Assembly: GCA_000708835.1 (NCBI GenBank)
Contig: DF237316.1
Location: 1-64,000, forward strand
Source: Klebsormidium nitens
Taxonomy: Eukaryota; Plantae; Klebsormidiophyceae
DNA length: 64,000 nucleotides
Direction: 5' to 3'
The notes below the pieces were generated by a model. The model saw only the letters and a program-made list of their open reading frames with translations, had not been told where the DNA came from and ran no database searches. The translations under genes were made by a program, and so were the position numbers. Of this stretch, positions 7,601 through 37,185 are shown in pieces; within the stretch, counting starts at the first letter, position 1; each line of letters opens with the position of its first letter.

Positions 7601-8779
7601 GTAACGCCTTATCCTCGACAACTGATATTGTCGGTACGAGCAATAATGCCAACAAACGCCTTGAAGTCCGAGAGCGACCAGCGCCGATACCCCTGACGGC
7701 TTTGAGTCGTATATAGAGAAAATTTGGCGGTAGACTACTAGCGGCATGCAGAGTACGCAATTGCTTCCAAAACTCCTTACAAAGAGAAAACAGATTTACT
7801 CTTTCCATAAACGATGAGTCAAGATGGAAAATCCGTCAAATCAAGATTGCTAGAATGTGGCCGTACGTATGAAGTGACTGCCTAGGCACACCAAGCAGGG
7901 CTAGAAAGGCATACCAAAGTAGACGCTAAGCCCCCCAGGACTAATCTCTATTCATGAAGTGATTGGCCATTGCACAAGACTCGCTGACGAGCAGCGTACA
8001 CAAGCAGTCTCATCCAAACTGCGCTAGGGATAGATCCTAAGAATCTTTGGAGGGACGAAGAGAGGCAGAAAGAGAGGAAAGGGACCGAAGTGACGAGAGA
8101 CAGAAAGGATCGAAAAGGACCCAAAGAAAGAAAAAGCAGGAAACGAACCAACCTTGCCAACCACCATGTTGACCCACTCTACGCTCTCCTTCTGCCCCGT
8201 CGGCCCCGGCTCCGGGATCGTGTTGACCTTGTCCGACGCCCGATAGTTGAACATCGCCAGGTTCTGACTTGTCCACCACTGACCAATAAAGATCGCTACC
8301 AGCAAAGCAAACCCCGCGCCGATCGACGCAAATGTGAGGTCTCGGTACACGCCCTGTCCCGGGACGCTTGGAATCCACGAGGGAGCCTGTACGCTGGCTA
8401 TCAACCTTGGCGCCGGGTTTGACCCGCGCGAAGCGGCGGGGGCGGCAGCGGCGGCGGCCCAGCATGGCGCCCCTTTTCGCCTGCCTTTGCGGACTAACCA
8501 GTGGGGTTTGCTGTAGCCCGATTTGCTTAACGGAGGGCCACTCAGCTCAGGTTTGCATTCTACGGGGCTGCCACGCAGAGGGTCACTCAAACAAGATTTG
8601 CTCGAATAAGGTCTGCTGACGCCAACCCCAAACAAGTAGCTAGCTCTAGGATAGGAGACGCTTCCTTGCGCAAATCCGGGAAGAGTACAAGGAGCTGCTG
8701 GCGGATTTAGAAGAGAGGCGCCTCCGCAGGGCTTATTCAGACCAGCAGGTCCGCAAGGACCAATCACTAATAGCGACAT
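1671..8779 (-). CDS. SMP + C2 domain membrane-contact-site protein, NTMC2T5/tricalbin-3-like; 7 exons: 8779-8153, 7015-6831, 6415-6155, 5555-5210, 4883-4785, 4170-3910, 2996-1671
   Basis: All six introns are GT-AG and the frame is continuous across them. Transit-peptide-like N-terminus, TM segment (GAGFALLVAIFIGQWW), SMP start (ESVEWVNMVVGK/MWKIYR), C2 domain (FKGELTVTLCEAQNL...SNPYC...NPVWNQDFQFLV), long Gly/Glu-rich tail and C-terminal hydrophobic helix. Confidence 0.88.
6340..6690 (-). repeat. Three tandem ~130-nt copies of the splice acceptor plus 5' part of exon 3 of the SMP/C2 gene
   Basis: accaatatggtacctggg occurs three times; the exon-start positions on the minus strand are 6415, 6544 and 6678. 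Only the 6415 copy continues in frame. Confidence 0.85.
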
Positions 8780-9135
8780 TATTTCCCACCACCCCTAGTT
8801 GGTGGCTGTGGAAAGCTTACATGCAGGCTCCAAACGAAACAACTTTGTCAGTCTTAGGGCTTGCACGCTGCATCTCTTATCCATATTGAACTTCATGACC
8901 GCCATTTAAGGCCCAATACGAAGTGGTGGCCAAACAAGAAAGGCAGGCTGTCAAGCTCACACGGCGCTGGCTGGCTACGCTGCATTCCTGCTAGAGCTAT
9001 TGCCAATTGCTAACCATCTACAAGAAGCCCTCCTTTAGCTGCCTGGTTCTTTCACCATCCATTTTTGCGGTTTGGAAAAGAAGCAGCATGTGGAGCCATG
9101 CTGAGGAAGACGCGTTGTCCAGCGCCCATCTTGAG

Positions 9136-9673: not shown

Positions 9674-10371
9674 ATCTTGAGACGCGAGGGATCTGCGTTC
9701 GAAGTCGTTGCCAGCTGGATGGTGGCACTGGCAGTTGCTGCATCTGTTGCGCCTGTGCACACTGCACATCAGTTTCGTGCGTGAAAATGCTCTATTAATT
9801 GAATATCTATTGATATCTTTAATTTACCGAGGACTTGGAGGAAGCTCTTGTCGAAACGAAGGAATCTTGGTAAGTGGAACTTGAAACCCACCAAGAATTT
9901 GTAACGTAGGTACCTATCTAGTGCAAAATTGGTCAAGCAAAAGCCTGTTCAAATCGATCAATCCGACGGTTCGATTATCGAACTGCCTGGTGGCTTCAAC
10001 GTCCTCGAGATTCATAAAAGCTGGAGCAGAACAAATGGGGGGAGCGTTGTGACCCTGAACGAACCCCCACCTTCCTGAACTCGATGAGTCAGCAGTTTCG
10101 TTTTGCCACGCGGCGTCGTTTAGGCACATCGCAAACCAGAATGGAATCCATTCAACGGTCGCGATACGCTCAAGTTTGCAACTCTGCAAGGGCGCGCACC
10201 CCAGTTTTGCTCTAGCTTGGGGCCCTGCTTGGCGTCGTGGCTGGTTTCAAATTCCTGGATCGATTTGGGAGTCCTGAGCTTTCCAAGCACAAGCAAGCGC
10301 AATTGAGGACAGGGGCGCCCGCTCAGATCCAATTTGATTTGGCAAGGGGGCGTGAGGTTTTGGGTTCGAGG

Positions 10372-13300
10372 ATGGAGGCGGTATCGGTTGCCAGCCGGTT
10401 GCCTCTGGCGGGGGCAGCCTTGCGAAGTGCCTCCACGCTCCAGCACCCAAGGAGCAGATCTAGCGCTATCGCCCCGGTGCCTATCCATGCACGCATCAAG
10501 AAAGAACATGCTCCCCTTGCTGGGGCTATGCATAGATCACAACCTCTGCACAGGAGCTGCAATTCCCCTAGCTTGGGGGCGTTCTCGGCCTCCAGCGCGC
10601 CGGTCAGGCGGTTCAGGCGCGATGCTCCGGTTCGCGCATCTGCTGCTGCAGCAGCAGCGGGAGATGAGAACGAGCCAGAGGTGCTTGCTGTTCCATTCAC
10701 AGCGGCCGCCCCGGCAGCACCTGTTAAGAAGTTTTTGGGGACGGAGGTCACGACCCTCAAGAAAGTCATCCCCCTGGGGCTGATGTTTTTCTGCATCCTT
10801 TTCAACTATACAATTCTGAGAGACACAAAGGATGTGCTGGTGGTTACGGCACCAGGTAGCGGAGCCGAGATCATTCCCTTCCTCAAGACCTGGGTCAACC
10901 TCCCCGCAGCCATTGGGTTTGCCATCCTGTATGCAGACCTTGCCAACAAGCTGACCAAGGAGACCCTGTTCTACACTTGCATCATCCCCTTCATCGCCTT
11001 TTTCGGGGCGTTTGCATTCATCATGTATCCGTTGAGGGATGTACTTCACCCGACTGCCTTCGTTGACGGCATCCTGGCGTCGGTCGGTCCCGTTTGGGCG
11101 CCGCGTCTGTCTGCACCCCTCTCAATCCTGAGGAATTGGACGTTCTGCGTCTTCTATGTTGCGGCGGAGTTGTGGGGGAGCGTGGTTGTATCAGTGCTCT
11201 TCTGGGGCTTTGCAAACCAGGTAAGGGTGGTGGCATATCAATCCTTCTCGACCACCTTCTTGAATCCTTACCGTTGTCGCAATCTTCAAAGACCAAGCTG
11301 GTATCGATCCAAATTTGTATCATGTCCTTTGCTGATCAAACGTCTGTTGCTTAGTTTGTTGTCCATCAATCGGCGATTCGGCAAAGCATTGATAAAACCT
11401 GTTGTGACAATTGCCTTTCTTGCTTCGGTCATGTAGAGTTGATTGATCATTTCAACTTAGGCAGTCATTGCCAGTGGTCTTAGGTTGATCATTTGTGATT
11501 TTCTCTAAACCATATTTTCTTGTTTGTTGCTGCTTCTATGGTCTAGAGGCAGCCTGTCTTATGTTGTTTCGTCCCTGTGCAAGAATGACTCCCTTTGCAA
11601 CCAAATAGTTTTGCACATCAACAATTTTCCAGTTGCTCCAACAGTCATTCATTTGTTTTGATTGAGCAATATCACTCTTCTTTTAGGAAAGGATGAAACT
11701 ATTTACCTTTTGACCTTGAAGACATCCTGCGCCTGTCTTTAGCTTGCCAACCACATGGGAGCAACATCTTGTTTTCTTCTACTACAACAAAAGTATTCAG
11801 AAGATGTGTGTCGCCTGATTGAGAAGTGGTAATGCTCTGTGTATGATATTGGATTGGATGTAATTGCCTGTTTGCAAACTTATATTTTAACAAAAGCACA
11901 ACAGAGCATGTTTTGGCCACCAGGGATTAGTCTGCTGTATCCCTGAGAAGGTGGTGTCTCAGTCCAAATCTGAACGGGACTCTTGTTGCTGCCCGGCCTG
12001 TGATGCACTGCGCCTACTCTTTGACATACATGCAAATCGTACCATGAAATACAAATCAATTATGTTTCTACAACTTGGTCAAATGCGTCGTTCGTGCTGC
12101 TTATTGACAGTCCTTTGTACTTCTTCAAGATCTGCACCAATCTCTTCACACCACCCCTGTGTCTGTTGCGTGAAGACTTGAGAAGCCATCCTTTGGCACC
12201 AAACTGCTTCAGAAGCAAAGTTGTTTAGGTTGCCGCCGCGGCAAAATTGCCTGGCCCGTTTCGTACTTTGTTTCACCAGTTCTGATGCAACTCAAGCAGT
12301 CGTCCACCACTTTGCAGATACATATTCCGTCTATGCATCATATAATGAGAATTGTTGACCACCACTTTTTACTCGTGCAGATCATGGTTGTTGATGAGGC
12401 CAGCCAGTGGTACCCGCTTTTCGGCCTGGGGGCGAACGTTGCGCTCGTTGTCTCTGGCCGTGTGGTCAAGTACTTCTCCAATGTGCGGGCCACCTTGAAA
12501 CCTGGTGTCGATGGCTGGGCGCTGTCGCTTAGGTAAGCAGACCAAGAACTAGCATGTTTAGGTTCACTAATCTGCACAATGTGGATGGCTTCGCAAATGT
12601 TTACTGGTGGGGATTTGGAAAGCTGGCAATTGTCAGATCTGCTGCATCATTGTTTCTTGCTGACTAGCTGGCTCGTGCCATTCTCTCAGCGATGGGTAGA
12701 ACTATCTGCTCGATGAATTTGACCAGCTCCCACTGCGATCTTGTTGGGTTGATTGCATTTCTACTTCCATCTTAACAAGTTTAGTCTGAAACGTGGTAGA
12801 ATTCTGTTTTGGCGCTTACTGGTTAAGAAGACTCTGAAGTGTTTTCTCATTGTTTCACGAGTCGCAAAGTTCTGTCATGTGACAAGCGGTATGGAAATGC
12901 ATCGCAGTAGCTCCTTTGGCATTTAGGCAGCACCATGTTCAGTGATGATCCGCTGCATGTTTCAAGCCATTGACAATTGCCTGGAAAAGTGCACCAGCCT
13001 AAGAGATCAGATTCATTCGCATCTTTCTGTTTTTTCTTTACTGTCGTGTCTTGGATTCCACCATTTTTCCTGTCAAAAATTGGTAATTAGATTTGATAAC
13101 TTCGTTGATAATTTCGCAGCCTGGGTTGGAGTTGTACTCTTTGGACTAACATTATGTTTCCATAGCTGCTTGGAATTTTGCCTTAAGCTCCAGAATAACT
13201 GTCGTTCTTTAGACCCGCATACAGAGATAAGTAGAGCGACAGCTGATGTTCTCCATGGGGCTGTTGCATTTTCGCGATCATTGTCGCAAGTCCTTTTGTG

Positions 13301-16300
13301 CTCGAGTATGGGTAATTTTTTTTGCTCGAGTACGCGTGAGTTTTTCAAAAAAAGGGGCGCAACCGTTCAGTAGCACTTTTGGATCATTGAGGGATTGTGT
13401 GTGCAGATCTTGGAAAAAGGTTACAATTGTTCGGTAGCAATTGTGGACTATCAAAGTATCACAGGGCAGCCGAATGAGAGCATTCAAAGGCTTGATGTGG
13501 ACTATCAAAGAAGTATAGGGCAGCGAAATAAGAGCAGGTTGAAGAGTTGCTGAGCTGATGAACAGATTGTGACGCTAGCGCTTCCCCTGCCGCAGGTACA
13601 TGATGGGCCTCGTTGTTATCATGGGCCTGGTCATCACTGGCATCTATGCTTTCACCAACAAGGTGTTGCTGAAGGACCCCAACGTCAAGCTGCCTACTGG
13701 AAGCAAGAAGAAGGTACGGCGCAGTTGACCTTCTTGTTCCTCCAGATCTATTGGTTTGCTGGAATTTCTATACTTACCACTCTGCAGACGCTTTTTAGCT
13801 TACTGTTGAGCTACAGCGAACAGTAGCGTTCTACTGGAAGAGCCTGGTGGTGTAAGAAGGTTTGGTCCTTGTGCGGAGACCAGATTGGTGTGCTTGCTGG
13901 GGAACAAGTCTTCTGGTTTTCAGGCTGCAACTTCTGTCAGGTCTTGTGGACACCGGTGTCTTTGTTAGAGAGGATTGTGGCCTCTCAAGAAGCAGTTGAA
14001 AGAGTGATGCGAAGAGAGGCCTGCGTGACGCAGGTGTTGTTTAAAAATTCCCCTATGCCTACTCGGAGTGACTGCATCTTTGCACTTGGACTTTGCTAGT
14101 GTATCTGTCTCAAAGAAGATGTTTGTCTGAGAACTGGCGAAGCACAATCTTCGGATGCTCTACTTATCTGGCACTCAGCAAGTCCGAGTGCAATTGAGCT
14201 CAAGTCAAAGTGTCGTTTCTGCAAATTGGCACTTCCATTGCAGCCAGCCAGAGAACACCCTATGGAGCACATGCAGTGTCAGGCTCGGGTTCTGCCTGCA
14301 GGCTAGACAGTCGGACTACTTCCCAGGCTATGGTTCATGTAGATTCCTATCGTGAGCCAGCCACTGATTTCAGTAAAGTTTACATCTTAGACTTGTCAGC
14401 TAGTTCTGAGTCACACAACAGCATTTGGAAAGCTTTTTGAAGTTTCTGTGGCTGAGTTCGCGCCGGCTAGCTCTCGCTCACACGGACTACTTCAGGTTCT
14501 TTGTGGCTGAGCTGAATCTGTAGCTGATTGGGAAACCCGCATTCACTGCAGAAGGAGAAGACGAAGCTGGGCTTTGGCGAGAGCGTGAAGTTCCTGCTCG
14601 ACTCGAGGTACATCCGCGACCTGGCGTGCCTGGTGGTGGCATACGGCATCAGCATTAACTTGGTGGAGGTTACATGGAAGAGCAAGATCAAGGCACAGGT
14701 GGGCTTATAACACCCTTCTCGTCGATTTACACACGAGATTTTATGTTGGGGTTTGATCTTTACTTTCATTAGTATGTCGTTCATTTTGCGGAGGTAAACA
14801 GAATGGAAGGGTTCGAAAATGGTTTTGAAACCTGGGATTAAGACTGATGAATGAGCTGACAGAAGGGGCGGTATTGGCAAGCAAATTCAATGCGCAGTGT
14901 GATGTCACGGTAGCAGCATTCGTTTTGCTTGTGATATGCCGTCGGATGGGTGGCTTGGATTGGTAGAGGGCAAGGCACAAAGTAATTGATGACCGTGAGT
15001 TGTGGAGCAGCTTTGGTCTTTCGTGAGGACTGATGTATTTGGATAGGGGAGTGCAGAAGCATGGTCAGTGAGTACGATCAAGGCGGCTTTGGGTGTCACT
15101 CTGGTGCACGGGCTTGCTTTCAGTGTAATTTGTCGAAGCAGTGTAGATTGTCGAAGCAGTGTGTCAGAATCAGTTGATAATGCTCAGGGTAGACCGATAT
15201 TACTGTCAGCACGACCAAGCTTTGAGGGGTCGTGCGGGGTCTAAGACTGGTCATTCCTGGTGTGCATTAACATCCAGCGCAAAGCAGCAGATGACAGGCA
15301 GAATGCGCACGCCAGTAACACAGTTGTTTTTCATGTACCAACATATCTATCGGCTCCGTTGCAGCAAGTCTCGCCACATCAAACGACTTTCCCCACTGTC
15401 AATTTCTGGGAAAGTGCCTCTTTGAGGATTACATTCCCCTGCCGTCTCGAGCTCCTGATGGCACCGATTAACCACTCTACTTCTCCCCTCACCACAAGCT
15501 TTTCATGGCATGTCAGCGATCAAGGATGACTGGGAAAGCCCGGAGTGTGGGTCCCGTTGGAATTTCTTCAAGCAGCATTACGTGACCCACACTTTCCTCC
15601 TTTCCTTCGTTTCCGAACCCGACCGACCACATCGCTTCATGGGCGACTTTGAAATCGCAATTCCTGACCCACATTCGGCCCCCCCTCCTCTACTCCTCAA
15701 TCCCAACGACAAACACTACCTGACTCACATTTCTCCCCTCCTCTAGTTCCCCAACCCCAACGACTACTCCGCCTTCATGGGCGACTTCTCGTCCGCGACC
15801 GGCGCCGTCACCTTCGGCATGATGCTCCTCTCGCGCGTCATCTTCCGCAAGTTCGGCTGGGGCGTCGCCGCCCAGATCACGCCCGTCGTGCTTCTCATCA
15901 CAGGTGTCGCCTTCTTCGGGCTGCTGCTCTTCGGCGGGCCGATCGCGCCGTGGCTCGCGTCGGTCGGGATGACCCCCCTGCTCGCTGCGGTGTACGTCGG
16001 CGCGCTACAGAACATCTTCTCCAAGTCCGCCAAGTACTCGCTGTTCGACCCGTGCAAGGAGATGGCCTATATCCCGCTGGACGACGAGACCAAGGTGCGC
16101 ATGCTGACTGTCGTGCCTTCATACTTTCCATTCTTCTCGATGCTGCCCTGTTCTTGGGAACTTACGTGCGCCTTTCCTTGGATACCAGAGTTGGCGAGGC
16201 AGAGGCGGGCTCGTTCAGTCTGGAAAATCCCATTATACACGGTCATTCCGGATGCTCGCGCAGCGAGCAAGGGAGTAAATTAGGAACGGCGTGGACAATT

Positions 16301-17624
16301 GATGGAACCGATTGACGAAGACTTCGAAATTTGGTCAGCGAGACCGCAGTTGGTCATGCATTTATTGAAGCTGCCTGTACGGGCGAATGGGACACAGACC
16401 TTGTCAAAGCGGGTTTCGTTTTGCGGTACTCCTGAAGGTTTTGGCGTCCATTGAGGGAGCATTACTTTCATCTACCGGAAGTGACGCACATTGGACGTCG
16501 CTCATCTTGTGCGGCGTTTACCTTCTGCCGAGCGAGGCAAAGTTACACACAAACAAAAGAGAAAGATGGCTTTTGCCAGAAGCTACACACTCAAGCTTTA
16601 CACCAACGAAAATTACCCTCCTTACACTCAAACCCGTTCCTGATCTGCGCCCCTACCTCCGATTTCCAGGTCAAGGGCAAGGCCGCCATTGACGTCGTGT
16701 GCAACCCCATGGGCAAGTCCGGCGGTGCCGCGATCCAGCAGGTGCTGATCATCGTCTTCGGGTCCCTCGCCAACTCCACCCCCTACCTAGGCGTCATTCT
16801 GCTGGGCATCGTGTGTCTCTGGATCGTTGCGGCCCGCTCGCTCGACAGCCAGTTCAAGCCCATGGTCCACAAGGGCATCAAGACGCAGATCTCGGAGGGC
16901 AAGCTGGAGGCGCTCTCAGCGCGTCTTTTGGGGCAGAGCCGGGGCCGGCAGGTTAGTGCCACGTGTCTTTTGCGATATGGCCTTTCTGTTTTTGCACTCG
17001 CACTTGTTCAGTGCCCTCGGAGGAGCTGACTGCGTCTTCTCAATCCTTCTGACTTCTTGTCTCCGGATCATTGGTGTAAATACTTTTTACGTTGGATACG
17101 ACGGCTTTGATTTGCCAGCTTATGCTGGGGAAGTCGGCTCGTCTGTTCAAGTATCATACGAGAGCCATTTTGACAGCGCACATTCATTGGTTTCTTGGAC
17201 GCTTCAATCATTTGCTGACCGTTTGCACTAGGTTTCCAAGGATTACGAACATGATGACGATCTTTGTCTTGTCTTACTCGACGACACTGCTTATTGACTT
17301 ACGACAATCCGGTCAATTCGACGACAACAATGATGGAGTATCCTCAGAATCATATATAGTATCTTTTTATGCGTTTTGCTTGATCTTTTGAAGCCCCAAA
17401 TCTGACCTCTTGTTTCTCTGGCTTTGCAGCAGAGGAGCCACCGCTTCGTCAGCGTGCTCAACGAGCAAGGGTACATCGAGGGCAGGTACGTTCCCATTGA
17501 TGACGACAGCAGGGCCACCAGCAAGACCGTTCCGGCCCCCGTCTCCCCTCAGAACGGCAATGGGCCGGTTTCTCCAACGGACGTGGTCGGAGCGACTCCG
17601 ACTACTCCTGTAGGGTCAACGTAG
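10372..17624 (+). CDS. NTT1: Plastidic ATP/ADP antiporter (TLC/NTT family); exons 10372-11220, 12381-12532, 13596-13713, 14552-14698, 15747-16094, 16670-16951, 17430-17624
   Basis: Family motifs LKKVIPLGLMFFCILFNYTILRDTKDVLVVTA, AELWGSVVVSVLFWGFANQ, YGISINLVEVTWKSK, KSAKYSLFDPCKEMAYIPLD and KGKAAIDVVCNPMGKSGGA. Transit-peptide-like N-terminus; GT-AG junctions in frame. The last exon is less certain. Confidence 0.93.
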
Positions 17625-19179: not shown

Positions 19180-22100
19180 TCAGTCCTCTACTTTTCCAAT
19201 TCGGAGCAGCAGTGGCCACGTCACCTTTCTTTCCGTTTGTGGATCTCCCCATGCGGCTTTCAATTCGTCCTCCACCGGTGCAAGCAGGTCAATCCCCTTC
19301 TCTTTCGCGGTGTTGTAAGGGCTCCAAGTCTTGTAATACCTTCAAATTGCATCCAAAGAAACAACTCGAATCGGTCAGCAAGTCGGGTCGATCAAATTCT
19401 TCTACCTTCAAAACTTTGATGAACGGTTTTACTTAGAATTACAGGACGAGGCTTCCATCTTCACTGGAAGTCTACTTGTGGAACAGATATGTGGCGTGCT
19501 CATAATGTGCGTCACCAAAAGTAGCCCTATTCCCTTGGACGCCTCTGATTTGCTGACGAGTATGTGATCCTTTCACGCTGGCGACTAAAGACAATCTCAT
19601 GCTGCCGTCTGCGAGCGTTTACCGTGCTGATGACTACGGACATCTTCATGCTAACGAGTTTAGACAACACAAGATGCTCACGATTACAGACATCTCTATG
19701 CAACCGGGTACGAACAATATGCAGAAAATCAAAAGGTATGGAGACAAGCAAAGCGCACAGCGTCTTCCGCAGGTTTGCAAGAAGAGTGCCGTACCCAATG
19801 AGGTCCTCGTACTTCCAGTGCTTGCTCGTCTCGAATGGGAATGGACCCGTACTGTCGCGGCCGTCGACCGGAACGAACGGAAACGGAATCGTTGCATAAC
19901 CCTCCTCTATGTACCTGGAAACCAGCGGACTTCATTCGTCAGCGAAACGGGCGTCAAGAAGCGCCACATCAACAGAAGCGAAGTGCATCACAGAATCCGT
20001 AGGGATTGAGAGGGAACCTGCAAGAAAACGGGGGAAAGTGAGCTTTGGGTTGTGAGAAACCCACTCAGGTTTCCGCGAATCACGCAGCGGAATGATGACA
20101 CCCTCCCCGTCGACTTCTATTCTTCAGCCAAACTGAATGCGCATAACTAAAACTTCTGGGTTTCAGAGTTCTACGGCTTAGGCAAACTTCAAGCTGGCCG
20201 AGACAGCCCAACTTGTACAGAAACAGAGCAAGCGGCAAGGCTCGTCTCAGGGCACAGCGCCTTCAGACCGCAGGAAAAGGCTCTCGACATTCTTTGAAGC
20301 GTAGTAAAGACACACGCATTTCTTGGTTAGTAGGATACTGGTAACGTTGGGGTATGTCAGATTGGAATTGCAACAGATTGGCCGAAATTTTCAAGCGCAC
20401 CGCTCGCAATTACTACTGGGTACGTTTTATCAGCGCTTCCCAACATCTTGCTGCATTGAGAGGACTATCAAACCACTTGTACTCAACCTAGCAACACAGA
20501 TAATCGACATCATGCGGCCTAGGTATACAGCCTACGATCTTGTCGTCAATGTAATGGCGACATGGAGACGTCCCCTGCTACAATGCGACTCGATCCGCAA
20601 AGTAACCAAGAATATGAATTGCAATCAATCATTATTATATGCCTAATCTCGCCACTCACTTCACCCGGGGGTTCCAAAACGGCCCGGTGGTCTGATAGTA
20701 TCTGTCCGAGACGGCATCAATGTCCGGCGTGATCCTGGCGTGTGAATACGACCAGGCTGCGAAGGTGCCCCCGGGTCTCCGCAACGCCTGGTGACGAAGA
20801 ACGAGATCGCAGAGAATTTTCAGAAAGCGAGAATCAGTAAGAGACGGGTCTAAACGACATGATTGAAGATCAAGAGACTCACTTCCGAGCAGTCTCCCAA
20901 TAGGGCCCCGTGATTTTGTAGAAGGCGGCCGAGACGGCATCAACCTCCGGGGTGACCTGCTCCGGGGGGGTGTACGTCCAGGCGGCAAACACCCCCCCAG
21001 GCCGGAGAGCCTGGCAAGTACGAACGCAGGCTATGGCTCGTCCAACTCCTTTCTGAGGACATTTCACTTTCTGGCCGTGTCCTTCCTGATTCATTTCAGC
21101 TCGCTGAACCGGTGCGATTCGAAGGATGCATGCTCGTGAGAGCCTGACAACAAGAGTGCGAAGGTGGCTCTAAACCTCAACGCCAGCTCGTGCAAACTTC
21201 TAGAGGGAAGAGCTCGTGTGATATGTCGACTGACCGATTCCTGGATGATCGGCTCCTGCTCTTGAATGGAACACATTATCGATCGACAAAGTGAGAAGCT
21301 CACGAATTTCTTCGCGAGGCTGTGGAAAAGCGTCACACGATCATAATCAAGCAAAAGTCCATGCAAGTCCAGTGTAAGAACCGTCTGTTGGAAAACGAAG
21401 AGCCCCTCCATGACTTCGAGCTGGGACGACATGTTTCGTTTTCTTTGCTTTTCTCTGGGGTTTTCAATAACTCCTAGTCTCCCCTTTTTCCACTTCGCTC
21501 GATCCAAAGCAACTTGTACAAGCCGAAAAGCTCAAAGGTTTTGGTCTCACCTTCTTAGCGAGCGCAAAAAACTCGTCAAAGTCGAACCAGTGCAGTGCTT
21601 GGGCCACGGTTATCAGGTCAACCGAACCCGCTGGGCCAACCGTTCGTTCAACGTCCTCCCAAGTCATGTTCGGTTCGGTTACCTGAGAGGCGCACAGGTA
21701 GTATTTACTGTCAACCAACCGTTCTTAGTGTCTTGGTCCAAATTTTGAATTCGGAGATTCGACTCAAGCGCTCCTGACACCATTTAGAAATGGATAAAGT
21801 ACTTTTGCAACCGTGTAGCGCTAACTCCTATGAAAGCACAGCACCCTTGGAAGACTGCCATCAAACTGCCGAGGAAAGTTTTGGCAAGAACGGGGATGCG
21901 ATGGATCCACTGGTCACGCGACAAGTATCTGATTTAGATGAACCACTGGCAGAAGCTTGACGTCAATCTTCTCATGCTCAGTTCTTGAAAAATATTCCAT
22001 TTTGTGATCGACGGCGTCCATAACATAGCTCAATCACGTTTCAACCCTCGTTTTGAAAAGACTGAAATTCTACGAAATAGAATGTATTTCATTTTCATAC

Positions 22101-23636
22101 CTATCTTTGAGGACGCCACCCTGCCTGCCTTCAGAGAGTTCAGGGGTTCGTAAAATGGAAATGCAACAGCACGATTCCCCAACCTTGTAAGTGATGTTGT
22201 CCCTTTGCTGTGCATGCTCAATCTGGGTTGCGCTGCGGTCGGTTGCAACCACGCGGTCAAAGTATTTTGCAAGGCTCGCTGCAGCCTGACCGTTTCCTGT
22301 AAGCACGTAAGTCAAGAGCCAAAGTCGGTCTGTGTGTCGATTGAGAGGAGCCTGCGAGACACAATGTTCGTTGCGGAGTCACATCTTCCAAAGGCAATCT
22401 CGTCAGCGCGCTGACATGCCAGAACAACTACCGTAATCCAAGGTGATAATTCCAAACAATGAGGATAAACTGCGGTCAGAGAGTTAGGATTTCCAATACC
22501 CCGTTTGGAAAATGATGCTTTGGAGAGTCAAATGTAATCTAAAATGGTTTCCAGAAGGCTCAAAACGGCCAAGATTTGCAGAGAATTCCCTTGTAAGTGA
22601 CAACGCATGGCATTTGGAGTGTGATTCAGCGCCGGTAATTCCCCTTCCCTATTAGGACCGTGAGAAACTTATTCCAGATAGAGTCGTCCAGGCTTACAAC
22701 TTTTGAGTACCGTGATTGGCACTTGTAGACTTCCGTTTGCCTTTCCAGACCTCAGCTTTAGCTATCAACCCCACAATCAACATTTGTATATTCCATCAAG
22801 GGTTATCCTGGTTCGTCGATTTTGGGGTGGTAGCTGAGGTGGAGTTCCAAAAAGCGGACTAGAGACCCCAATCAGGGGTTCTAACAGACCTTCAGGCACC
22901 TATATGGATGTCACAACTTCAGAAAGGATATAACACCAGTGGCTTTGTTCAGATGTTCAAGGCTCAGACTTCAGAACTTTTTCGAATTCTCTTCTGATAG
23001 TAATCAGAAGTGCAGATTAGCTGTTCAAGTTTCATGTAAGGAAGATGGGAAGAGGGAGGTTGTGCTTGCAGCAATTCCATTGACTGGGAACTGAAAAAGG
23101 GGCAGAAAGATCTGAGGAGGGGACACAGTACACACTGTACAAAGAGAGCTCAAACCTTATCAAAGCGCGGCACCACCTTCAGAGATTATGCAAACCCCTG
23201 ACACTCAATGTAGCAGCTTAATTCCCACCACCGCTACTCTAAAGAAGGCCTTTTTAGTCTAGGACAAAGATTGTCAAGATACTAAATTGATAGATCAAAG
23301 CAAGGAAGATTGAAGATTGAATGATTTAGTCCGTACTAAAACATGCGTGTTTCCAGAGTGTCAAGCACCAAGCACAGAACAAGTCCAGTCAGCTTTATTG
23401 CACTGCACCTGATAATTTGTAATAATTTGCATACATACCAATGCCCAGGACACATGGCTTTATTGAGTTAATCAACATATAATCATCTCACCTGTCCCAA
23501 CATCCCAAGCTAAAGTCCTGCCAGGGGCAGCTGACACAATCCTCTGAATGAATTCATCGGGGTAGTCCGGCCGGTACTTGGCGTACACATCTGCCTGCTT
23601 GGAGAAGAGGTCCCGCCCATCTGTGGCAGGCGGCAT
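19180..23636 (-). CDS. Class I SAM-dependent methyltransferase (plant Methyltransf_11 type); exons 23636-23492, 22296-22184, 21682-21551, [21010-20883 OR 20787-20660], 19914-19795, 19339-19180
   Basis: Motifs LFSKQADVYAKYRPDYP, AWDVGTGNGQAA, DLITVAQALHWFDFDEF, LRPGGVFAAW, TIPFPF and WSPYNTAKEKGIDLL; GT-AG junctions in frame. An in-frame upstream ATG at 23741 could add 35 aa. Confidence 0.9.
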
Positions 23637-24428: not shown

Positions 24429-27400
24429 ATGGTACTTGCCATTGAGTCCAGCAGTTCGAGTCGTATTGCAAGCGGGCAAAACTATGTAGATTTTGCAAGC
24501 TGCCATGACAGGGTGGCATCACTCTGCTACACTTGCAAGCAGCAAATCTGGACTAAGGAGCCTAGCAGCGGTGCACTGAGGCTCAGCTTTCGGAAGCATA
24601 GCACATTCAAGGGCTACCTGGTCAGTGCCAGCGTGCCTAAGAGCAAGCAGGTAAAACAGCTTCTGTGCCTCAGCTGTGTTGCCCGGCATTTAGGCTCAGT
24701 CGGAGACAGCGCAGATGGCCTTTCACTGCTGCTCACAGACAGAGGCCCAGGCTTGCAAGATGCAGTGCTTTTTCACTACATTGTCCGGCCGGTTGTCAAA
24801 AAGCGCACTACGATTTGCCCGGGGCCCGCAAGATACGGGGCTGTTCATCCAGCGGGGCCACGTCAAATGTACGGAATTGAACTGGCCAATGAAACAGGGG
24901 TGGTACATATACCACGTGGGTTGGTATAGGACCGCCGGTCCCGTCAGGCTGTGAGTCCCCGGTCACTAATTCAGCGTAACATCGCCTGCAGACACAGCCA
25001 ATTCAGCTGCCCGGTGACTTTTATGGTACTACTAGCCTAGGTAGCACCTACTACGAGCCTAGGTANNNNNNNNNNNNNNNNNNNNTTAAAGTGCGCTTTT
25101 TGACAACGGGATGGTCAATGTAGTGTTTCAGCGGGAGAGGTCAGGCGCATGGCTCCAGAGGTTGCAGCTCACGGACCAGCTGCTGGAAGAGGCCGCGGCG
25201 GCCAATGAGGGCGGTAGAAAAAGGAAGAACCCTAAAAAATCCGCAGCTGAGAGCTCTGGCCGGGGCATGCAGGCAGGCAAGAGACCGCGGGCAGCGCCGG
25301 TGAGCTGGTGATTATTTTCTTCTTAGATCCTATGAATATTTGCAATGCATCAGATCTCTTCCAACAGTTGCGTCAGGCCGGCCAGATTCTGCTGGACTCA
25401 TTGCCTTGCGTGCGCCCATTCAAAGAAAGGAAACACGCGTTCTGATTACATGCTCTTCATGGAATTCATTATTGCTCGCCACCCAAAAGGCTCTTTGTTG
25501 GACAAGATTCTACAGGCAGTCTTGACCTGCTCGTTCCGCTCAGATTTTGAGCATGGTGTGATGCTGATATCTGAGGCTGGTCAGGAGGTGTATCTGAAGG
25601 ACTTGGTCGGCGCTTGCAGGCACTCGAAGGCGGGGCCCCCGGCATTGCCGGCCAAGCCACTCTCTTCATCAGTGGTGTACTAGATGGCGCGTGCCGCGTG
25701 CTGCTGCCGGCGGGGCAAGACCCTGAGGGCCCGCTCCTCGGCAGGCTCTACCTGACGGCGTGGGATCACAACCGCGCAAAGCCGAAGCCGCTTGGAAAGC
25801 CTTGCAAAGAGAAGGCACTGCTGCAGGAATGCTGGTGGGATTCGCAGGGGCGGCTCAATTGCACATGCCACCGCGGCAGGCTGGCTCTGGATGCGCCATG
25901 CGTACACAAGCTGGTCTTGGCGTCCCCCTGCACGGACTTCATCGCCAGCAGCGGCTTGCCGACCGCGAAGGACCTGAGTAGTGGGGCTCACGTGGTCGAG
26001 CAATTGGGGGAGGACCCAAGCGGGGCCTTCTACGCCGTCAGGAACAGCCCGAAGGGAGTGAGCCCGGAGCACAGAATGCTCCACCGGACCACGGCTGGAG
26101 CCTGGTACTGTGAGGGCAAACTCAGCGGCTGTCCTGCGCAAGAATGCTCTCACATCACGGCGGCCAAGGCTGCCCTAGCTGCGGGAAGGGTGCAGCACTC
26201 TGAGGGCATCCTTCTCGGGCCGGACGCCCTAAGTACGGCAGCTCACTGGATAGAGGACTGGGAGGGTGAGTTGCCGTTGCTGGGCGAGCCGGGCGAGCAA
26301 AGGGTGCGAGGGGCAGGGTGCGCAATCGAGCGAGGGGCAACGGGTGAGGAGGCGGGACTGCTGGGACTGATTGCCGGGCAGAAGCAGGGGGCGGCAGAGT
26401 GCCTGGGCATCAATTGCTTTTGTCTGGAACACCTGGTTCTTTTCGGAGAGGCGCGACCGGCATCGGAGGCTGGTGATTTAGATGGGGCCCTGGAAACGTC
26501 GAGCACCAGCGTCGAGCCTTGGAAGCGGGCGCCGAGGGGTTCGAAGTACTGGGCGGAACACCGGGGCGAGCTGCGAAGCGCCGCGCCCCGCAGTGCTGCA
26601 GGAGAGCCGGCGGAGGACGCGCGGGGCGAGGATGCGATCCAAGGCTGGGTGCCAGCTTGCCACAGCTGCAAGCTGAGCGAGACGCGGCAAGGGGGGTGCA
26701 GGCATGCGGAGGCGGGGCGCGTGCAAGTGCCAGTCATGCTGCTGGGGACGGAGGCCCTCCAGATCACGAAGCCGAAGCTGGGCAAGCTCGCCGATGCCCT
26801 CGTTCACCACGATCCATGGATCAGCTCCCTTAAAGGGGGCCTCGTCCGCGTCAGCAAGCTGCGAGACTGCCACTTTCGAGAGCTCAGCCAGATGGGGATG
26901 CTCAGGGCCGCGTGCCCGATTCAGCCTCCCCCCTGCGGCGGCAAGTGGGTGGAGCACGTGAAGGCGGCCGTTATACACGCCTCCACCTGGTCAGAGCGGG
27001 TGCTAACGACAATCTACTGCTGCCAGTGCACCAGCAAAGCGCACACGGTGCACTTCTGTGGGGAGCACCTCGGCCTCTACTGCTGGACGGCGGGGACCAT
27101 CCTGGTCCAGGAGAGCCTGCAGCTCATCCTCAAGGGGATGCAGCGCTCCGGGTCGGCCTTCTCCGCCGAGCTGGCGAGGGACCAGGAGGCGTTCGCCCGC
27201 TCCCCCGAGTCGGTCGTTTTATCGGACGAGAGCTGGCGCAGGGCGAGCTTGGACTTCTTCAAGCTAGTGGGCAGGCAGATCCTCGAGTGCTGTTCTATCT
27301 GCGGCGTGCATCCGGAGGTGAGCACTTCTTGCAGCGTGGTCTCACCTCTCGTACGGTCGCCGTTCTTTGAGGAATGAGCGATCCGCCGACGAACGCCCGT

Positions 27401-30400
27401 AGCGAATCGATATCCATATTCAAATCACCTTCGTTGAATTCGTCGGCCAACGTAAGTCGGGTCACGCGCTGCCTTGCCGCATCCATGCTGTGGTGCATTC
27501 TTCAAGGATTTAAACGCTCCAATATTTCCGCACTGCTTTTTAGGCGTCGGCAAACCCGTCATCAGAATCAGGCTACAGATTTATTGAATGTTGATTTTGT
27601 ACAAGATGAAGTTTGAACACGGGGTTTACAGGGTGGTTTTCGAAATCATACGTTCGGTATTGTAGAAGAGGGCTCAGCCCTCTCCTTCATTCAATTTCCC
27701 CAAACTTTCAAGGTGCTTTTGAAAGCTGGTGACTTTTCGGTTTTGAACTCATGCAGGTGCTCCTGGCGGACGGAATAGTCGGCGTGGCGAATAGCGACGG
27801 AGGCAAACGCCCCGGAGGCCTTGGCAACACGTCCTTGGACTGCAGGCGGACGTTCGTCCACCCCAGCCAGCACTCGAGCGGCGAGGCGCTGGAGAAGCAG
27901 TCGATCAGCGGGCGCGACTACTGCGCCGCGAGCCTCGAAGGCGGCGGAATGAAGCGAAGGCTCGTTCTGCAGCCGGAGCTCCGCGACCTGCTTGCGCGTC
28001 TCTCGCAGCACAGGCCGACCTCCGAAAGGCTTGGGCAACGGCTCAGCGAGGCGGAGTACCCGCTTCTCAAGGCAGCGCTCGCTCGGGAGGACGTGAAGGA
28101 GGTGGTGCGTTTCAGCCAGGTCGAGGGTGAACCGGGCAGGCTGCCGATCTTGGCCAGGCGGCGGCTGCTGGACGAGCAGGTTCAGATGGTTCGGGAGAAG
28201 AATCTCGCCGTGCTGCGGCTGCTTTGGGGCATCGAGGCGGACCTAGAGGCGCGAGGGGGCAGCCCCCGCATCTGGGAGCACTCGCCGGGCGAATGGGGCG
28301 AACTGCTCTACGATCTGGGCGCGCACGATGCGGACTGCGGGATCATCGGGACATCAGGCGGCCTCTCGGTCGTCCGCAGGCTGCTGCTGGGGTACGCGGC
28401 CACGGTGGAGGACTGCAGGCTGCTCGGGGCCGGCTCGCCGATCCTGCGGTNNNNNNNNNNNNNNNNNNNNGACTGCAGGCTGCGTCGGGGCCGGCCGTCC
28501 GCCGGACTCCTCGCGGTGGTGCTGGACGCCTACGGCGGCGGCTGCTTCCCGGCCTTCTCGCGCCGGCCCTCCACCATCTGTACATTCTGACCGCGCTGGC
28601 TCGGGGCTGCACCGGCTTCGGGGACGAGCATCGAGACGGCTGGGTGATAGCCGCGCTCAGGCCGCTCAATCACGCCGTCGAGCTCTTGCGGATCCAGGCG
28701 GAGCGGGGCGCGCTGGACGGGCAGGAGACGCGACTTTTGGCGGACGCTCGCGGCCTCGCGGACCGGTTGCTGCCCGGGGTGGAGGCGCTGAGGCCGAGCC
28801 CGGCTCAATGGGCGGCGATGAGCGGGGTTGAGCGAGAGCTCTTATGGGAACGGCTCGGACGTGATGAGGAGGGCCACCAGATGCACCCGCTCCCGCCGGG
28901 GCACGGCTTCCGGGCGGAGCTTGATGCGCTTGGGCATTACGCGTTGCCGGGGTGGGAGCAGAAGCGCGGTCTGCCGCATTACGTCACATTCGAGCACGCC
29001 AACGGGAAGAGTCGGACGGGGGAGGAATTCAAGTGCAATTCGGGGCAGACGGAGACCGAATGGGACGCCGCAAACGTGCCCGGGCTGACGCGGGGAGGCG
29101 GAAAGGGGAAGAAGGCGAAGCGGCCGCACAAGAGCAGAGGCGCCATGGTGGTCTGCTGCCCCCATCGGGTCATCTACGGCTTCCACGTGATGCTGAGAGG
29201 CGAAAGTCCAAGGGACGTCTTCACCGTGCTTTTCACGCGGCTGAACCGGGAGCACCTCCCCAAATTCGTCGTCTACGACAACGCCTGCGCCCTGCGCAAC
29301 TACTGCATGAGGCGCGAGCCCGCGTTTTTCGCCGAGATCACATTCGTCGTGGACAGGTGAGCGTCGAACCGANNNNNNNNNNNNNNNNNNNNNNNNNNNN
29401 NNNNNNNNNNNNNNNNNNNNNNNNNNNNNNNNNNNNNNNNNNNNNNNNNNNNNNNNNNNNNNNNNNNNNNNNNNNNNNNNNNNNNNNNNNNNNNNNNNNN
29501 NNNNNNNNNNNNNNNNNNNNNNNNNNNNNNNNNNNNNNNNNNNNNNNNNNNNNNNNNNNNNNNNNNNNNNNNNNNNNNNNNNNNNNNNNNNNNNNNNNNN
29601 NNNNNNNNNNNNNNNNNNNNNNNNNNNNNNNNNNNNNNNNNNNNNNNNNNNNNNNNNNNNNNNNNNNNNNNNNNNNNNNNNNNNNNNNNNNNNNNNNNNN
29701 NNNNNNNNNNNNNNNNNNNNNNNNNNNNNNNNNNNNNNNNNNNNNNNNNNNNNNNNNNNNNNNNNNNNNNNNNNNNNNNNNNNNNNNNNNNNNNNNNNNN
29801 NNNNNNNNNNNNNNNNNNNNNNNNNNNNNNNNNNNNNNNNNNNNNNNNNNNNNNNNNNNNNNNNNNNNNNNNNNNNNNNNNNNNNNNNNNNNNNNNNNNN
29901 NNNNNNNNNNNNNNNNNNNNNNNNNNNNNNNNNNNNNNNNNNNNNNNNNNNNNNNNNNNNNNNNNNNNNNNNNNNNNNNNNNNNNNNNNNNNNNNNNNNN
30001 NNNNNNNNNNNNNNNNNNNNNNNNNNNNNNNNAACCGATAGGAAACGTTTCCCTTTCGTCATCATCGTCGATGGCGTCTCGCAACTTTGACACCGTTGTA
30101 CGAAATGGTCAACAGTCAAAACCTGCATCCTATTAGATATATATAAGTCGTTATAGATTGCAAGAATTGACTGTTCTCCAAGGGCATGCCGAGGGCGCAA
30201 TGGCCCCCTTGCTGCCTCCGCGTTATCTCAATCGCGAACTTGCAAGCGCCTTCTGGCCCGTTAATATGTGCATTCACTGTGCAACACGGCTTGAAGGTGC
30301 GAGGACGTAGCAAAAGTCGCTGCGATGTTGGTGCAGGTTTCACTACGCCAAGGCGGGTGCGGAGGTTCACAAGTGCGGGCCCTCCAACGCCACCGACTTC

Positions 30401-31175: not shown

Positions 31176-34100
31176 TTACCTGGATTCTCGAGGACCCCAA
31201 CAATCTTCTAATGAAGGCTGGATTCGACACGATTCGGCCACCGGCGGTTCCGAGTTGCCGTCTTCGTCCTCCCGAAGTTCGTCATCGGTCTTGAGCCGGA
31301 TTCCGAAGAAGCCAGCTGATCTGCGTCGCGAACCATCGACCATCGGGATCATTCGATTTACGCCTGTGAATGGGTGTTGATAGATGTTCTTCGCTTTCAT
31401 TGCCTGTGTTAGGATTCCGTCGTTGGCCATCGCTCTATCGTGTCCTAAACTCATCAAGAATGCGGCGTAGGCCGCCGTGATTTCGACTTTGGTGATCTTG
31501 TACTCCCTCCCCAGCTTGCAGAAACCGGAAACTCACGCACCCAACTGATCGTTCTCGGTCGTATATTTGGTGATAGCTGCGCTGAAAATCTGCGGGATTG
31601 GTTTCAGAGCCGGTGCGCTCGGATTTGCCGCCTTACGTGCGTAGTACATCATTGCTCCTTCCACGCAGAAATCTAGGGTGTCGGCAGCGCCCTCGTCCGA
31701 CTCCATGTAGTTCTTCAGGTTGGTGTCGATAAGCCTGTGCAGTGGATTATTCGCGTCGATCTGGTCCTCGCTTCTGAAAAGCTTGTTGAACATCATCAGG
31801 AGGAGGCGCCGAATCATGCCCTCATCGTTGGCGGGGAACAATGGCCGGTAATTCGTCAGCATGCATAGCTTGAAACGCGGCACATAGTTCTCCGTCTTGC
31901 AGAACAACTGGCGAGCATTGATCCCGCCTCCACCGGTTAATTCCTTCAAAGAGCCGCAGTTGAGATGCTCTTCTTGTTCGCTCTCGTCCATGATCACGAG
32001 GCGAGCTGCCTTTATGTGCATCAGGTGGGACGACGCGGCCGATGCGCTCTGGCTAAAGGCTGGTTTGATGAATATGGCCTTTGCACCGGTGGTGCAATAC
32101 GTGCCGAATGCCTTTTGCAGTGCGATTTTCAGCTGCGTTTTTCCGTTTCCTCCGCAGCCATTCAAGATTGAAAGGAGCTCTTCACAGGTCTCGCCCGTGA
32201 GGCAATACCCAAAGAACATTTGGACCCACTCGATGATGCTTTCGTCCAGGACCGAGATCATGAAACCCCGGAATTTCGCTGTGGGGGCTCTGCTTGCCCC
32301 TCGCACGTACGTGAAGGTTTGGTTGTTGCACAGATCCTTCGGATGGTGCTTCGAAAGCTGCCCGGTCTTCAGATCGATCAACCCGTTTGGTGCATTGGCC
32401 ACGCAAGGATCCTAATCGAACTTATCCGTGAGTTGGGCCACGAACAGTTCAGTGATCGTCGAATGCAGACACTTAGCCACTTGGACCGGATCTTGGACGT
32501 TGATTTTGAAGGGGGGCATATCCCTCTCGCTTTGATCCATGCAAGATTTCGTGGCAGACTTTATCATGGGTTTCCGCTTCTCGGGAACCGAATCCAAGTC
32601 CACTTCGCGCGTCTCTTGGTTCCAAAAGGGTGCTAAAACAGGGTGCTCCGATAGCAGCTTCCTCTCATGGTCGTCTCGCTTCATCTCGTACCAAGTCATC
32701 AAAATCCCCATCTGCGATGTGAACACGTTTGAGACGAGATTGTAAGTGTCTTGGATCCAAGAGGAGCCGTTCCATACGTAGAAAACCGCCGCTCCTTTCT
32801 GTGACTTTTCTGCTTCGTGCACGGTGGTAAGGATTCGGCCTTCAATCATGTATAAATATGCAAAGAGCTTGCCCAAGTTGGCAAAAGCTCCAGGTACGGC
32901 ATTGGCAAGTACGATCTGAAGCAGCAAATTCCGGGTCTCTTGAGACCCCTTGATGTGCCTCATAATTACCTGCATGTCGTCGTATTGATCGACCGGATCG
33001 CTGGTGGCATCCTCAAGAGCTGCTTCTAGGCTCAATTGGCCGAGCTTCCTCACCGGCTCGTGGGAACATTGGTCACCGTGGCAGCGGTAGTAGACATTCC
33101 GCCCGCGCTTCAGCAGGTTGAAATTATTGCTGCCTTGATGTTCGCGGCCGAAGAAGCACGTCCTAGGCCCGGTCGTCCGGAAGCAGTAATACGTACCGTA
33201 TAGACCGTGCTGGAGCGAGCTCGCATACGTGCTTGACGAATCCTTCGCCTTCTCCTTCAGCATCTTCTGAAGCTCTCGCACGAGCAGACCATCCTGCGCC
33301 AATGGCACATGTGTCGCACCCCCTGTGACCGGCTCGACCGGTCTGGCCGGCTGGACCGGCTCATCTTCTGAGGCTGGATTCTGGTCAACTTCGCCACCGC
33401 TGTCGACAGCGCGGGGCAGTGGGGCACATTCCGAGGCGGCGATCGAAGGCCCCGCACCAGCTGAGCCTCGATTGATAGTATCGACAAGCCAGCTTGGCAT
33501 TGCCTGTGGGATTCCGTCGCCCTCAGGTGCCCAGGAGTAGCCTCGAGATTCGCCGTGCTGCCCCAGATATCGAGCAGGTGGGGCAAAGCAGAGACCTCCG
33601 ATGCCTCTGCCATCGATACCGTAGTCCTTGCCTTCGACGACCAGCCCTGCAAAGTTGTTAGTTCTATTCAGGCCGACCGTTGCGGTGATGTCGAAGTAAT
33701 AGTGGTAACCCCCACTGCCGGTGACGACCTTCAATGTTGCAGGCTCACCGTGCTGGCTTGTTAGCTTGTTCCAAATTTCAATACCGGAGCGTTTTATCTT
33801 ACCGTCCGACTTGATACTGCTTGCAACGTCGACGTCGACGCAAAACAGCTTACTTGGCTCTGTCATTACAGCAAGGCCGTTACACTTCTTGGACGACCTG
33901 AGGACGCTCCCGATTTTGGCTTTCCACTTGTCCACCGTTGCCAGCTGACCCCAGGGAAGTGAGAATTTCGGATCTTTTTTACCGCTCGCTTTCAAGGTGA
34001 TGGTCACTGGTACACAATAGATTTCGTGCGTGCTCAGGCGCATGATCTCCGAGCTGACGTCCTTGGGGTCTAGGGCCGACGGCCTCACGTCGGATCGAGC

Positions 34101-34268
34101 GCCCGGGGTCAAACCGTCGGGGTATTGTTGAGGAGCCTGGAGGCCTGACGCTGACAAGGTGGCGGCAGTCTCAGAGGAGTTGCTGGTGTTCATGGCGCTG
34201 AGCATGTTATACTCTAAGGTTCTGTTAGGAAAAAAATAAGCGTCAGAAAAACGCACGTACGCGGACAA
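31176..34268 (-). pseudogene. Intronless virus-like prim-pol + D5-like SF3 helicase, ~1030 codons, with two in-frame stops (TAG 32412-32414, TGA 31533-31535)
   Basis: Prim-pol motifs GLAVMT...FCVDVD...TGSGGYHYYF...IDGRGIGG; Zn region YRCHGDQC; D5_N (FD*DPCVANAPNGLIDLKTG); Walker A GCGGNGKT; Walker B LVIMDE; TNYRP. ORFs 32412-34268, 31533-32402 and 31176-31457 share one frame. Confidence 0.85.
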
Positions 34269-34304
34269 CCCTCGAATATTTTCTCAAGTGAGACTACGAC
34301 TGAA

Positions 34305-34637
34305 ATGTCAGACACACTTAACAACCTACCCAAGAAAGGCACTTACGCCGACGAGGTGTTTACCTGTGAGTGCCGCCATTGCTTGACGGCACGAAAATAC
34401 AAACTGCGGAATCCGGATGCTCAAAACCGTTCTATGGCCGAATACTATCAGCGAAACAAAGATACCCTCCTCATTGATCAAGCATGGCTGCGATACAAGC
34501 GAGGGGTGAATCTTCACTTCAAGACCCTTACGAAACTCAAACAAGCTGGCTTCCCCGTAGAAATGACCGCTGGTGCGCCAGCCTCTCAGCCTACAGAGAA
34601 TGATCTGATGCATTTCGTTGCAGTCGAAGCCGCTTAG
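34305..34637 (+). CDS. Small basic protein (110 aa) with a CxCxxC motif, virus-like hypothetical
   Basis: Intronless ATG ORF packed between the primase and recombinase genes. Its stop overlaps the restored recombinase stop at 34634-34637. Confidence 0.55.
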   Translation: MSDTLNNLPKKGTYADEVFTCECRHCLTARKYKLRNPDAQNRSMAEYYQRNKDTLLIDQAWLRYKRGVNLHFKTLTKLKQAGFPVEMTAGAPASQPTENDLMHFVAVEAA

Positions 34638-36708: not shown

Positions 36709-37185
36709 CTAGCCTCTCGCGCTGGCTGCGAGCCGGTTGTTGGCCTTACACTTGGCGGGGTTCGCCAGGAGGTCGAGCATGAGGTCATCGGCCGTGAGGT
36801 ATCTCAGTTCGGCGATTTGTGCTTCCATCGAAATCTCATGCTGCGTGCGCACTTTGTCGCATGCTTTCCTGCTCTTGCTATGTTGCTCCGAACGTTTTAG
36901 AACAGACCCCCAGTCTACCAACAGATTGTAGGGGTTTTTGCACCGGTGCACGACTATCTCCGCCTTTTGAAGACCACGGCAAACTGCATTGACCATGTCA
37001 CACATCGAGAATGGTGGGAGGGTCCCTCGAATTCCCGAAATCTCCCCCAACGGCAGTACCATGCCGTGCGTGTGCTCCGTTTCGAAAGTCCGTTTAATGC
37101 GGCTGATAGATTTATCAAGACACTCCTGGTAAAACTGTCGGATCTGATTCTTCGTTTTGTTGTGGGCTGCCAATATATCCTGCAT
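36709..37185 (-). CDS. Hypothetical protein (158 aa), possibly related to small conserved giant-virus (NCLDV) proteins
   Basis: Intronless ATG ORF. The pattern FYQECLDKSISRIK...LPPFSM...VCRGLQ...VV...LLVDW recalls an NCLDV hypothetical family; this is from memory and not verified. Confidence 0.45.
   Translation of the reverse strand: MQDILAAHNKTKNQIRQFYQECLDKSISRIKRTFETEHTHGMVLPLGEISGIRGTLPPFSMCDMVNAVCRGLQKAEIVVHRCKNPYNLLVDWGSVLKRSEQHSKSRKACDKVRTQHEISMEAQIAELRYLTADDLMLDLLANPAKCKANNRLAASARG

Follow-up and report, generated by a model that had tools for sequence, protein, structure and literature searches.

Conserved, abundantly used mutually exclusive exons in an orphan methyltransferase gene of a likely streptophyte alga

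Background

How does one gene come to carry two versions of the same internal exon, how are these versions kept out of a common message, and in what do the resulting enzymes differ? These questions are raised by a predicted methyltransferase gene in the 64,000-nucleotide stretch of DNA analysed here (in the following referred to as the window), in which two homologous exons of equal length lie in tandem. Homologous mutually exclusive exons (MXEs) have been studied extensively in animals, but few are documented in the green lineage, where in the literature covered one verified case from Volvox stands beside unverified predictions from Arabidopsis. The gene described here is a clean case from a likely algal relative of the land plants, both of its forms being abundant, and it suggests that the animal type of control, whether steric or based on decay, also works in the green lineage. 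Moreover, the gene belongs to an orphan enzyme family present in bacteria, fungi, animals and plants, and its two forms, which differ only within a segment of 42 residues next to the likely acceptor pocket, provide a natural paired experiment. In this paper, we confirm a real, conserved and abundantly used mutually exclusive exon pair in this orphan methyltransferase, and discuss how its members may be kept apart and what they may do.

Results and Discussion

Gene structure

The predicted methyltransferase is encoded on the minus strand by a gene of seven exons, which runs from 23636 to 19180. The coding part of exon 1 (23492..23636) begins with the ATG at 23636 and contains the YRPxYP motif and the start of SAM-binding motif I; in the contigs of all eight transcript runs described below it is joined to exon 2 (113 nt, 22184..22296; motif I-II region of Methyltransf_11/25) at 22295/23491, and the 5' UTR of the transcript contigs reaches to about 23840. 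Exon 3 (132 nt, 21551..21682) encodes strand 4 and the AQALHW motif, and its donor joins either exon A (128 nt, 20883..21010) or exon B (128 nt, 20660..20787), the two being separated by an intron of 95 nt (20788..20882). Both routes continue at the common acceptor of exon 5 (120 nt, 19795..19914), and the coding part of exon 6 (19180..19339) ends with the stop TGA at 19182-19180, beyond which contigs extend the 3' UTR to about 18910.

Exons A and B are alike in length, in their CAG acceptors and GAA/GTGAGT donors, and in their phases (0/2). Either exon alone gives a message of 798 nt with an open frame of 265 aa, and the frame is broken both by inclusion of the two (A+B, 926 nt) and by skipping of the two (670 nt). 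An earlier note on this DNA, made from the letters alone, had described two homologous 128-nt exons with their peptides, splice sites, phases and 95-nt intron, together with a frameshift on joint inclusion, and all of these particulars were reproduced exactly. The two peptides are identical at 22 of 41 aligned positions, the other 19 residues being changed, plus an indel pair; their global BLOSUM62 score is 114, with a maximum of 34 among shuffles (n=2000). Within the window the exons find each other by tblastn (E ~5e-11 and 3e-11), and the same search found no third copy there. Outside the splice sites, the intron sequence flanking A and that flanking B show no homology (p 0.46 and 0.06 by shuffling).

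Both exons are spliced in all transcript runs examined

The stretch is contained in 20 of 24 listed public runs, all of them assembled contigs whose RNA status is guessed and not on record; one of the runs may be the window's own source. Eight runs were examined, one per study code, and two of the runs (X14 and X15) appear to be a single data set submitted under two entries. In the contigs of all eight, exon 3 is joined to A (21010/21551) and to B (20787/21551), and both A (19914/20883) and B (19914/20660) are joined to exon 5. All four joints are GT-AG and lie at the coordinates that the earlier note had predicted for them, and the three constitutive joints of the gene are likewise present in 8/8 runs. 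The shorter side of the four A/B joints measured 24-29 letters, and the bar for bridging was 31 letters. The clean GT-AG joints at all six edges, of the other introns and of the MXEs, indicate spliced RNA, and the presence of the four A/B joints is well shown by its repetition across runs.

By contig depth, a rough measure, B accounts for about 30-58% of A plus B in the eight runs, and the summed depth of A and B is of the same order as that of the flanks (for example, 2950 versus 2275 and 3108, or 109 versus 82 and 106). Both forms are present in every run, without an all-or-none switch. Neither an A-B joint nor a joint of exon 3 to exon 5 that skips both was listed in any of the eight runs; since assembled contigs drop rare forms, the missing A-B joint is no proof of strict exclusion. 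The four joints support the proposal of the earlier note, and we regard mutually exclusive splicing of A and B as nearly certain.

In run X1 the A-B intron is covered by no contig (by bin arithmetic), which is uninformative on this intron either way. In the same run the intron before A (21011-21550) and the last intron (19340-19794) are deeper than the others (246 and 227 versus 7-84), which may mean slow splicing or retention, contig depth being a poor measure.

Run X21 represents a strain that is diverged by a few percent; its 3' UTR is much changed, and each coding exon piece differs at 2-10 places. This strain splices both A and B, gap-free, with 6 other letters in A and 9 in B. Six of these 15 exon differences were shown, four of them residue changes (conservative or semi-conservative) and two silent; in each exon two of the three that were shown change a residue.

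Conservation and age of the exon pair

In a tree of 38 proteins, the A form and a relative recovered by profile search (P0019) group with 12 plant-type proteins (SH-aLRT 96), outside the group of Closterium and named land plants (84). This position suggests that the host is likely a streptophyte alga and not a land plant. GC content, intron style and tree position would fit Klebsormidium, which we name only tentatively. P0019 is a 252-aa protein on a 923-nt contig, identical to the A form at 201 of 248 positions and with an A-type exon. A second relative, P0139, was the one outstanding match (E 3.8e-18) of 105 when an A/B profile was compared with 1.84 billion representatives; single-exon queries in word-indexed protein searches gave no match. 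P0139 is a 51-aa open reading frame on a 2419-nt contig, in which a B-type exon is preceded by eight residues, the last of them Gln, and followed by a single Lys. Its edges, read off the protein and not the DNA, would fit read-through of a CAG acceptor and an AA/GT donor. P0019 and P0139 are separate records, and both exons are found in one locus only in the window and, as transcripts, in X21. In the following we will refer to their exons as A' and B'.

Like resembles like: A and A' agree at 33/41 positions and B and B' at 31/42, while cross-type pairs agree at 20-24 of 41-42. Similarly, an exon tree places A with A' and B with B' (83/78 and 67/0), and a second exon tree gave the same pairing (99/99 and 98/91) from an alignment in which the ends of both B-type rows are misplaced and a part of exon 3 is taken in. 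With this second, faulty alignment, a clade of the window's own A and B is unrejected by the AU test (p 0.10), so that the age of the duplication rests on the identities and on weak trees. Together, these suggest that the duplication is likely older than the split from the lineages of P0019 and P0139, and the pair would go back to an old tandem exon duplication in a streptophyte algal lineage. As to which land-plant subfamily the exons match, AU tests gave p 0.34 for an algal A+B clade and 0.29 for B with flowering plants, from an alignment faulty at the B-type ends.

Between A and B of the window, pS is 0.64 and pN 0.28, with dN/dS of about 0.25 over 41 codons; this value and the occurrence of A-type and B-type exons in relatives support the selection on both exons that the earlier note had suggested from their divergence and open frames. 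Neither is only one exon spliced nor is the other unconserved, for both are present in strain X21, the A type in P0019 and the B type in P0139. Among the 80 loci returned by a metagenome scan none showed two exon copies (79 had one place and one had two low-score binned places). Nearly all of these loci are intronless bacterial genes. Two others, L010 (35-862) and L011 (49-846), are conifer-like transcripts of the methyltransferase family with 82% mutual identity, and members of their clusters are named Picea sitchensis.

How A and B may be kept apart

In a sequence scan, the best branch-like match of the A-B intron is TACTGAT, with the A at +49 from A's donor, and a second, weaker branch-like site (CTGA) lies at +63; its AG-free zone measures 60 nt, compared with 13-31 nt in the other five introns. 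A steric limit of about 50 nt from donor to branch point has been proposed (PMC5740500, PMC7969005), and the second site lies beyond it. The likely branch point would then stand at the spliceosome's steric limit and the joining of A to B would be blocked, and we propose that A and B are kept apart in this way, by steric hindrance as in MXEs of the tropomyosin/OGDH type. Whether such a block contributes to exclusion is, in our view, evenly balanced.

Any A+B message would in addition be exposed to nonsense-mediated decay, backing up the steric block: translation would stop where B ends, 121 nt before the last joint is reached, which makes the message a likely decay target. In the skipped form, the stop falls inside the last exon. 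This arrangement resembles that of vertebrate OGDH exons 4a/4b, likewise tandem homologous exons of an enzyme gene, separated by a short intron with a long AG-free zone and producing a frameshift on double inclusion (PMC7969005); if the candidate at +49 is the branch point used, its spacing of less than about 50 nt from the donor would be a further likeness. In OGDH, however, the branch points have been mapped (25-41 nt) and the isoforms differ in calcium sensitivity (PMC7969005), whereas here both the branch point and the isoform difference are predicted.

Alternatively, there may be no splicing block, A, B and A+B messages all being made and nonsense-mediated decay alone removing those with a shifted frame. 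The exon length, not a multiple of three, and the early stop of the A+B message would suit such a system, and the branch-like site at +63 would permit A-B joining. In human, exon length is no multiple of three in 60% of MXE clusters, and for 22% of these joining reads were found (PMC5740500). However, the skipped form, with its stop in the last exon, is also unlisted in the runs, and among the six introns it is the A-B intron whose AG-free zone is longest and whose best branch-like match lies at +49. As contigs drop rare forms, a splicing block and decay are not separable by the missing A-B joint. We favour the steric block backed by decay; decay alone, its main rival, is a serious possibility but the less probable one.

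Other ways of exclusion were considered and rejected. Incompatible U2 and U12 splice sites are contradicted by the donors, all of which are GT and of U2-type sequence. Folding of six stretches gave z-scores between +1.0 and -1.0, so that a docking-site/selector RNA structure of the Dscam type is unsupported, and the best inverted repeat matched over 12/13 nt. Finally, a helix was predicted between the donor of A and the pyrimidine tract in the A-B intron, but shuffled sequences fold equally well.

Protein family and the segment encoded by the exon

Exon pieces of the gene match the Pfam families PF08241/PF13649 weakly (the 36-aa piece of exon 2 with E 0.004-0.01, below the cut-off), and P0019, 81% identical, carries both families. 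Full-length relatives are assigned to Methyltransf_11/25 and are automatically named 'putative methyltransferase DDB_G0268948'. Matches to NCBIfam models all stay below the cut-offs. The gene has the characters of a class I SAM-dependent methyltransferase, namely a Rossmann-type fold, motif I, the AQAxHW motif and Methyltransf_11, the last weakly in its pieces and by way of P0019. It shares the motifs YRPxYP, WDxGxG, AQAxHW and PGG-x-x-A-x-W-x-Y with Tmt1, Crg1, 4HG2 and DDB_G0268948-like proteins. Three flowering-plant gene models (P0005, P0014 and P0022) hold two methyltransferase copies in one chain (416-471 aa) and are either real fusions or merged tandem genes.

An AlphaFold2 model of the A-type P0019 (117 sequences, pLDDT 95.7) was used to stand in for the window protein. 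It matches the folds of 4HG2 from Anaeromyxobacter (TM 0.83), yeast Tmt1 (3G5T, TM 0.79) and HvrF (9E72, TM 0.69), and GtmA (TM up to 0.59) is a distant structural relative. The predicted fold of the gene is that of Tmt1 and 4HG2 (TM 0.79-0.83), although sequence identity to Tmt1 (3G5T), a trans-aconitate 3-methyltransferase whose reaction is the methyl esterification of trans-aconitate or 3-isopropylmalate, is only about 20%. The exon corresponds to residues 115-156 of P0019, which in the model form a strand (122-128), a short loop, a helix (135-151) and Trp152; Y128 and W152, both invariant in the family, are kept in A and in B. By this model, the exon encodes Rossmann strand 5, followed by the first helix of the cap, in a small-molecule methyltransferase like Tmt1 and 4HG2. 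The earlier note had placed the segment after the SAM-binding core, but with strand 5 the segment lies partly inside the SAM-binding fold.

In class I enzymes that act on small molecules, the acceptor pocket is shaped by insertions following strand 5. For GtmA, a small domain hinged on strands 5-7 has been proposed as a substrate carrier (PMC5356443), and the closely homologous Tmt1 and Crg1 act on different small molecules (PMC3197675). The present enzyme likely methylates small molecules to methyl esters or similar products, as Tmt1 and Crg1 do. In the literature searched we found no substrate for plant 'DDB_G0268948-like' members and no papers on the HvrF or 4HG2 structures.

What may distinguish the two enzymes

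The A and B segments were compared with 107 family segments, mostly bacterial and chosen by likeness (125 pattern matches among 246 stored proteins gave 111 distinct segments, from which four algal ones were removed). Four places after the invariant Trp, 86 of the 107 have Arg, as do A, A', 4HG2 and Tmt1 (the last by profile alignment). B and B' have Val at this place and Arg one place earlier, a pattern found in 7/107 segments, including full-length bacterial and flowering-plant proteins; the 21 of 107 relatives without the Trp+4 Arg indicate that this residue is not essential in the family. Type-specific residues are T-Y-T-P-P and W-x-x-A-R in A and A', and Y-x-H-A after strand 5 and W-N-x-R-V in B and B'; the His of the B-type His-Ala is found at its column in 2/107 segments.

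The two forms thus likely differ in the loop and the cap helix adjoining the methyl-acceptor pocket, and the changed residues may touch the substrate. With the family Arg replaced by Val and the loop after strand 5 altered in B, we propose that substrate preference or rate likely differs between the forms. A measurable enzymatic difference between them is somewhat probable, clearly different substrates rather improbable. Equally tentative is the wider reading of the exon as a substrate-specificity cassette kept across early-diverging streptophyte algae, through which one gene would provide two enzymes with different acceptors. In land plants, the same segment varies between genes (W-x-x-A-R in ferns and gymnosperms, W-x-P-R-I in some flowering plants), whereas here it varies by splicing; if the cassette reading is true, splicing does what land plants do with separate genes.

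The forms might also be nearly equivalent, both copies being kept since each supplies a large share of the message and damage to either lowers the enzyme dose. Both are used to a similar extent in the eight runs (B about 30-58%), both keep all invariant residues of the family, a dN/dS below 1 follows from use alone, and amino-acid changes are found in both exons of strain X21 (two of three shown differences in each). On the other hand, one copy could be lost at little cost if the two were equal, and the type-specific residues are kept across relatives (A with A', B with B'), among them the His of the B type, present in only 2/107 other segments; on this evidence near-equivalence is unlikely, if still to be reckoned with. 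Still less probable is that B is a damped or inactive form which has lost an Arg that grips the substrate, and which serves to set how much active enzyme is made. Such a form would explain Val in place of an Arg that most relatives keep, yet B has an Arg one position earlier, as do 7/107 relatives, and a B-type exon is conserved in P0139 at 31/42 positions. Finally, that A and B stem from two alleles or paralogues set in tandem by the assembly is extremely improbable: no listed contig spans the A-B intron and the runs examined include no DNA run, but the shared exons are without other letters in 7/7 same-strain runs, unspliced contigs link A to its upstream intron (20989-21571) and B to its downstream intron (19885-20677) as in the window, the diverged strain X21 uses the same two routes, and the 95-nt spacer is equipped with a donor, a pyrimidine tract and an acceptor of its own.

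The best explanation overall, which we consider probable, is a duplicated exon, a steric block backed by decay, and forms that likely differ.

Comparison with known mutually exclusive exons

Homologous mutually exclusive exons are already known, and the methyltransferase pair is a well-supported further case. The nearest parallel comes from another green alga: as in the present gene, exons 4 and 5 of Volvox carteri cyn23 are internal homologues that share one length, there 106 nt, which is no multiple of three. The two cyn23 forms have been verified, and their differences have been proposed to alter ligand binding (PMC4378016). By contrast, cyn23 encodes a chlorophyte cyclophilin with 13 changed residues and very low expression (PMC4378016), while the present pair occurs in a methyltransferase of a likely streptophyte alga, has 19/41 changed residues plus an indel pair, and both of its types are found in relatives. 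In Arabidopsis, FLM/MAF1 has mutually exclusive internal exons of unequal size (19 and 15 aa), one of them described as a recent cryptic exon (PMC3266260), and Kassiopeia holds 99 predicted internal MXE candidates, none of which was annotated at the time (PMC3923563). Unlike these, the pair described here is homologous and both of its routes are present in transcript contigs. Two reviews (PMC11464654, PMC9276941) were uninformative on MXE frequency. A search for a published report of this exon pair found none in the freely accessible literature covered; long-read annotation tables could hold the isoforms without comment.

Other genes in the window

A minus-strand gene at 1671-8794 contains a piece of a C2 domain (E 5.7e-6), and we take it to be synaptotagmin-like. 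A plastid-type ATP/ADP transporter gene (10216-17029; PF03219, E 1.4e-63) fits a green-lineage host. Large open reading frames at 25575-29360, situated by assembly gaps, have weak matches to CxC4 (E 0.026) and to KDZ transposase (E 1.4e-4, below the cut-off) and likely represent an element of the Kyakuja-Dileera-Zisupton type. At 31533-34283, a Prim-Pol domain (E 1.7e-13) adjoins a D5-like helicase (DUF5906, D5_N) in long, intron-poor open reading frames; a second Prim-Pol (E 1.4e-8) lies at 41107-41685, and a helicase-like frame at 38351-39277 is without a Pfam match, as is the frame at 34710-35690. The region 31533-41685 looks like two virus-derived or mobile modules. Finally, at 44936-48615, a 3'-5' exonuclease frame (PF01612, E 2.6e-17) is followed by frames for a SpoIIIAA-like ATPase, possibly as one fused gene.
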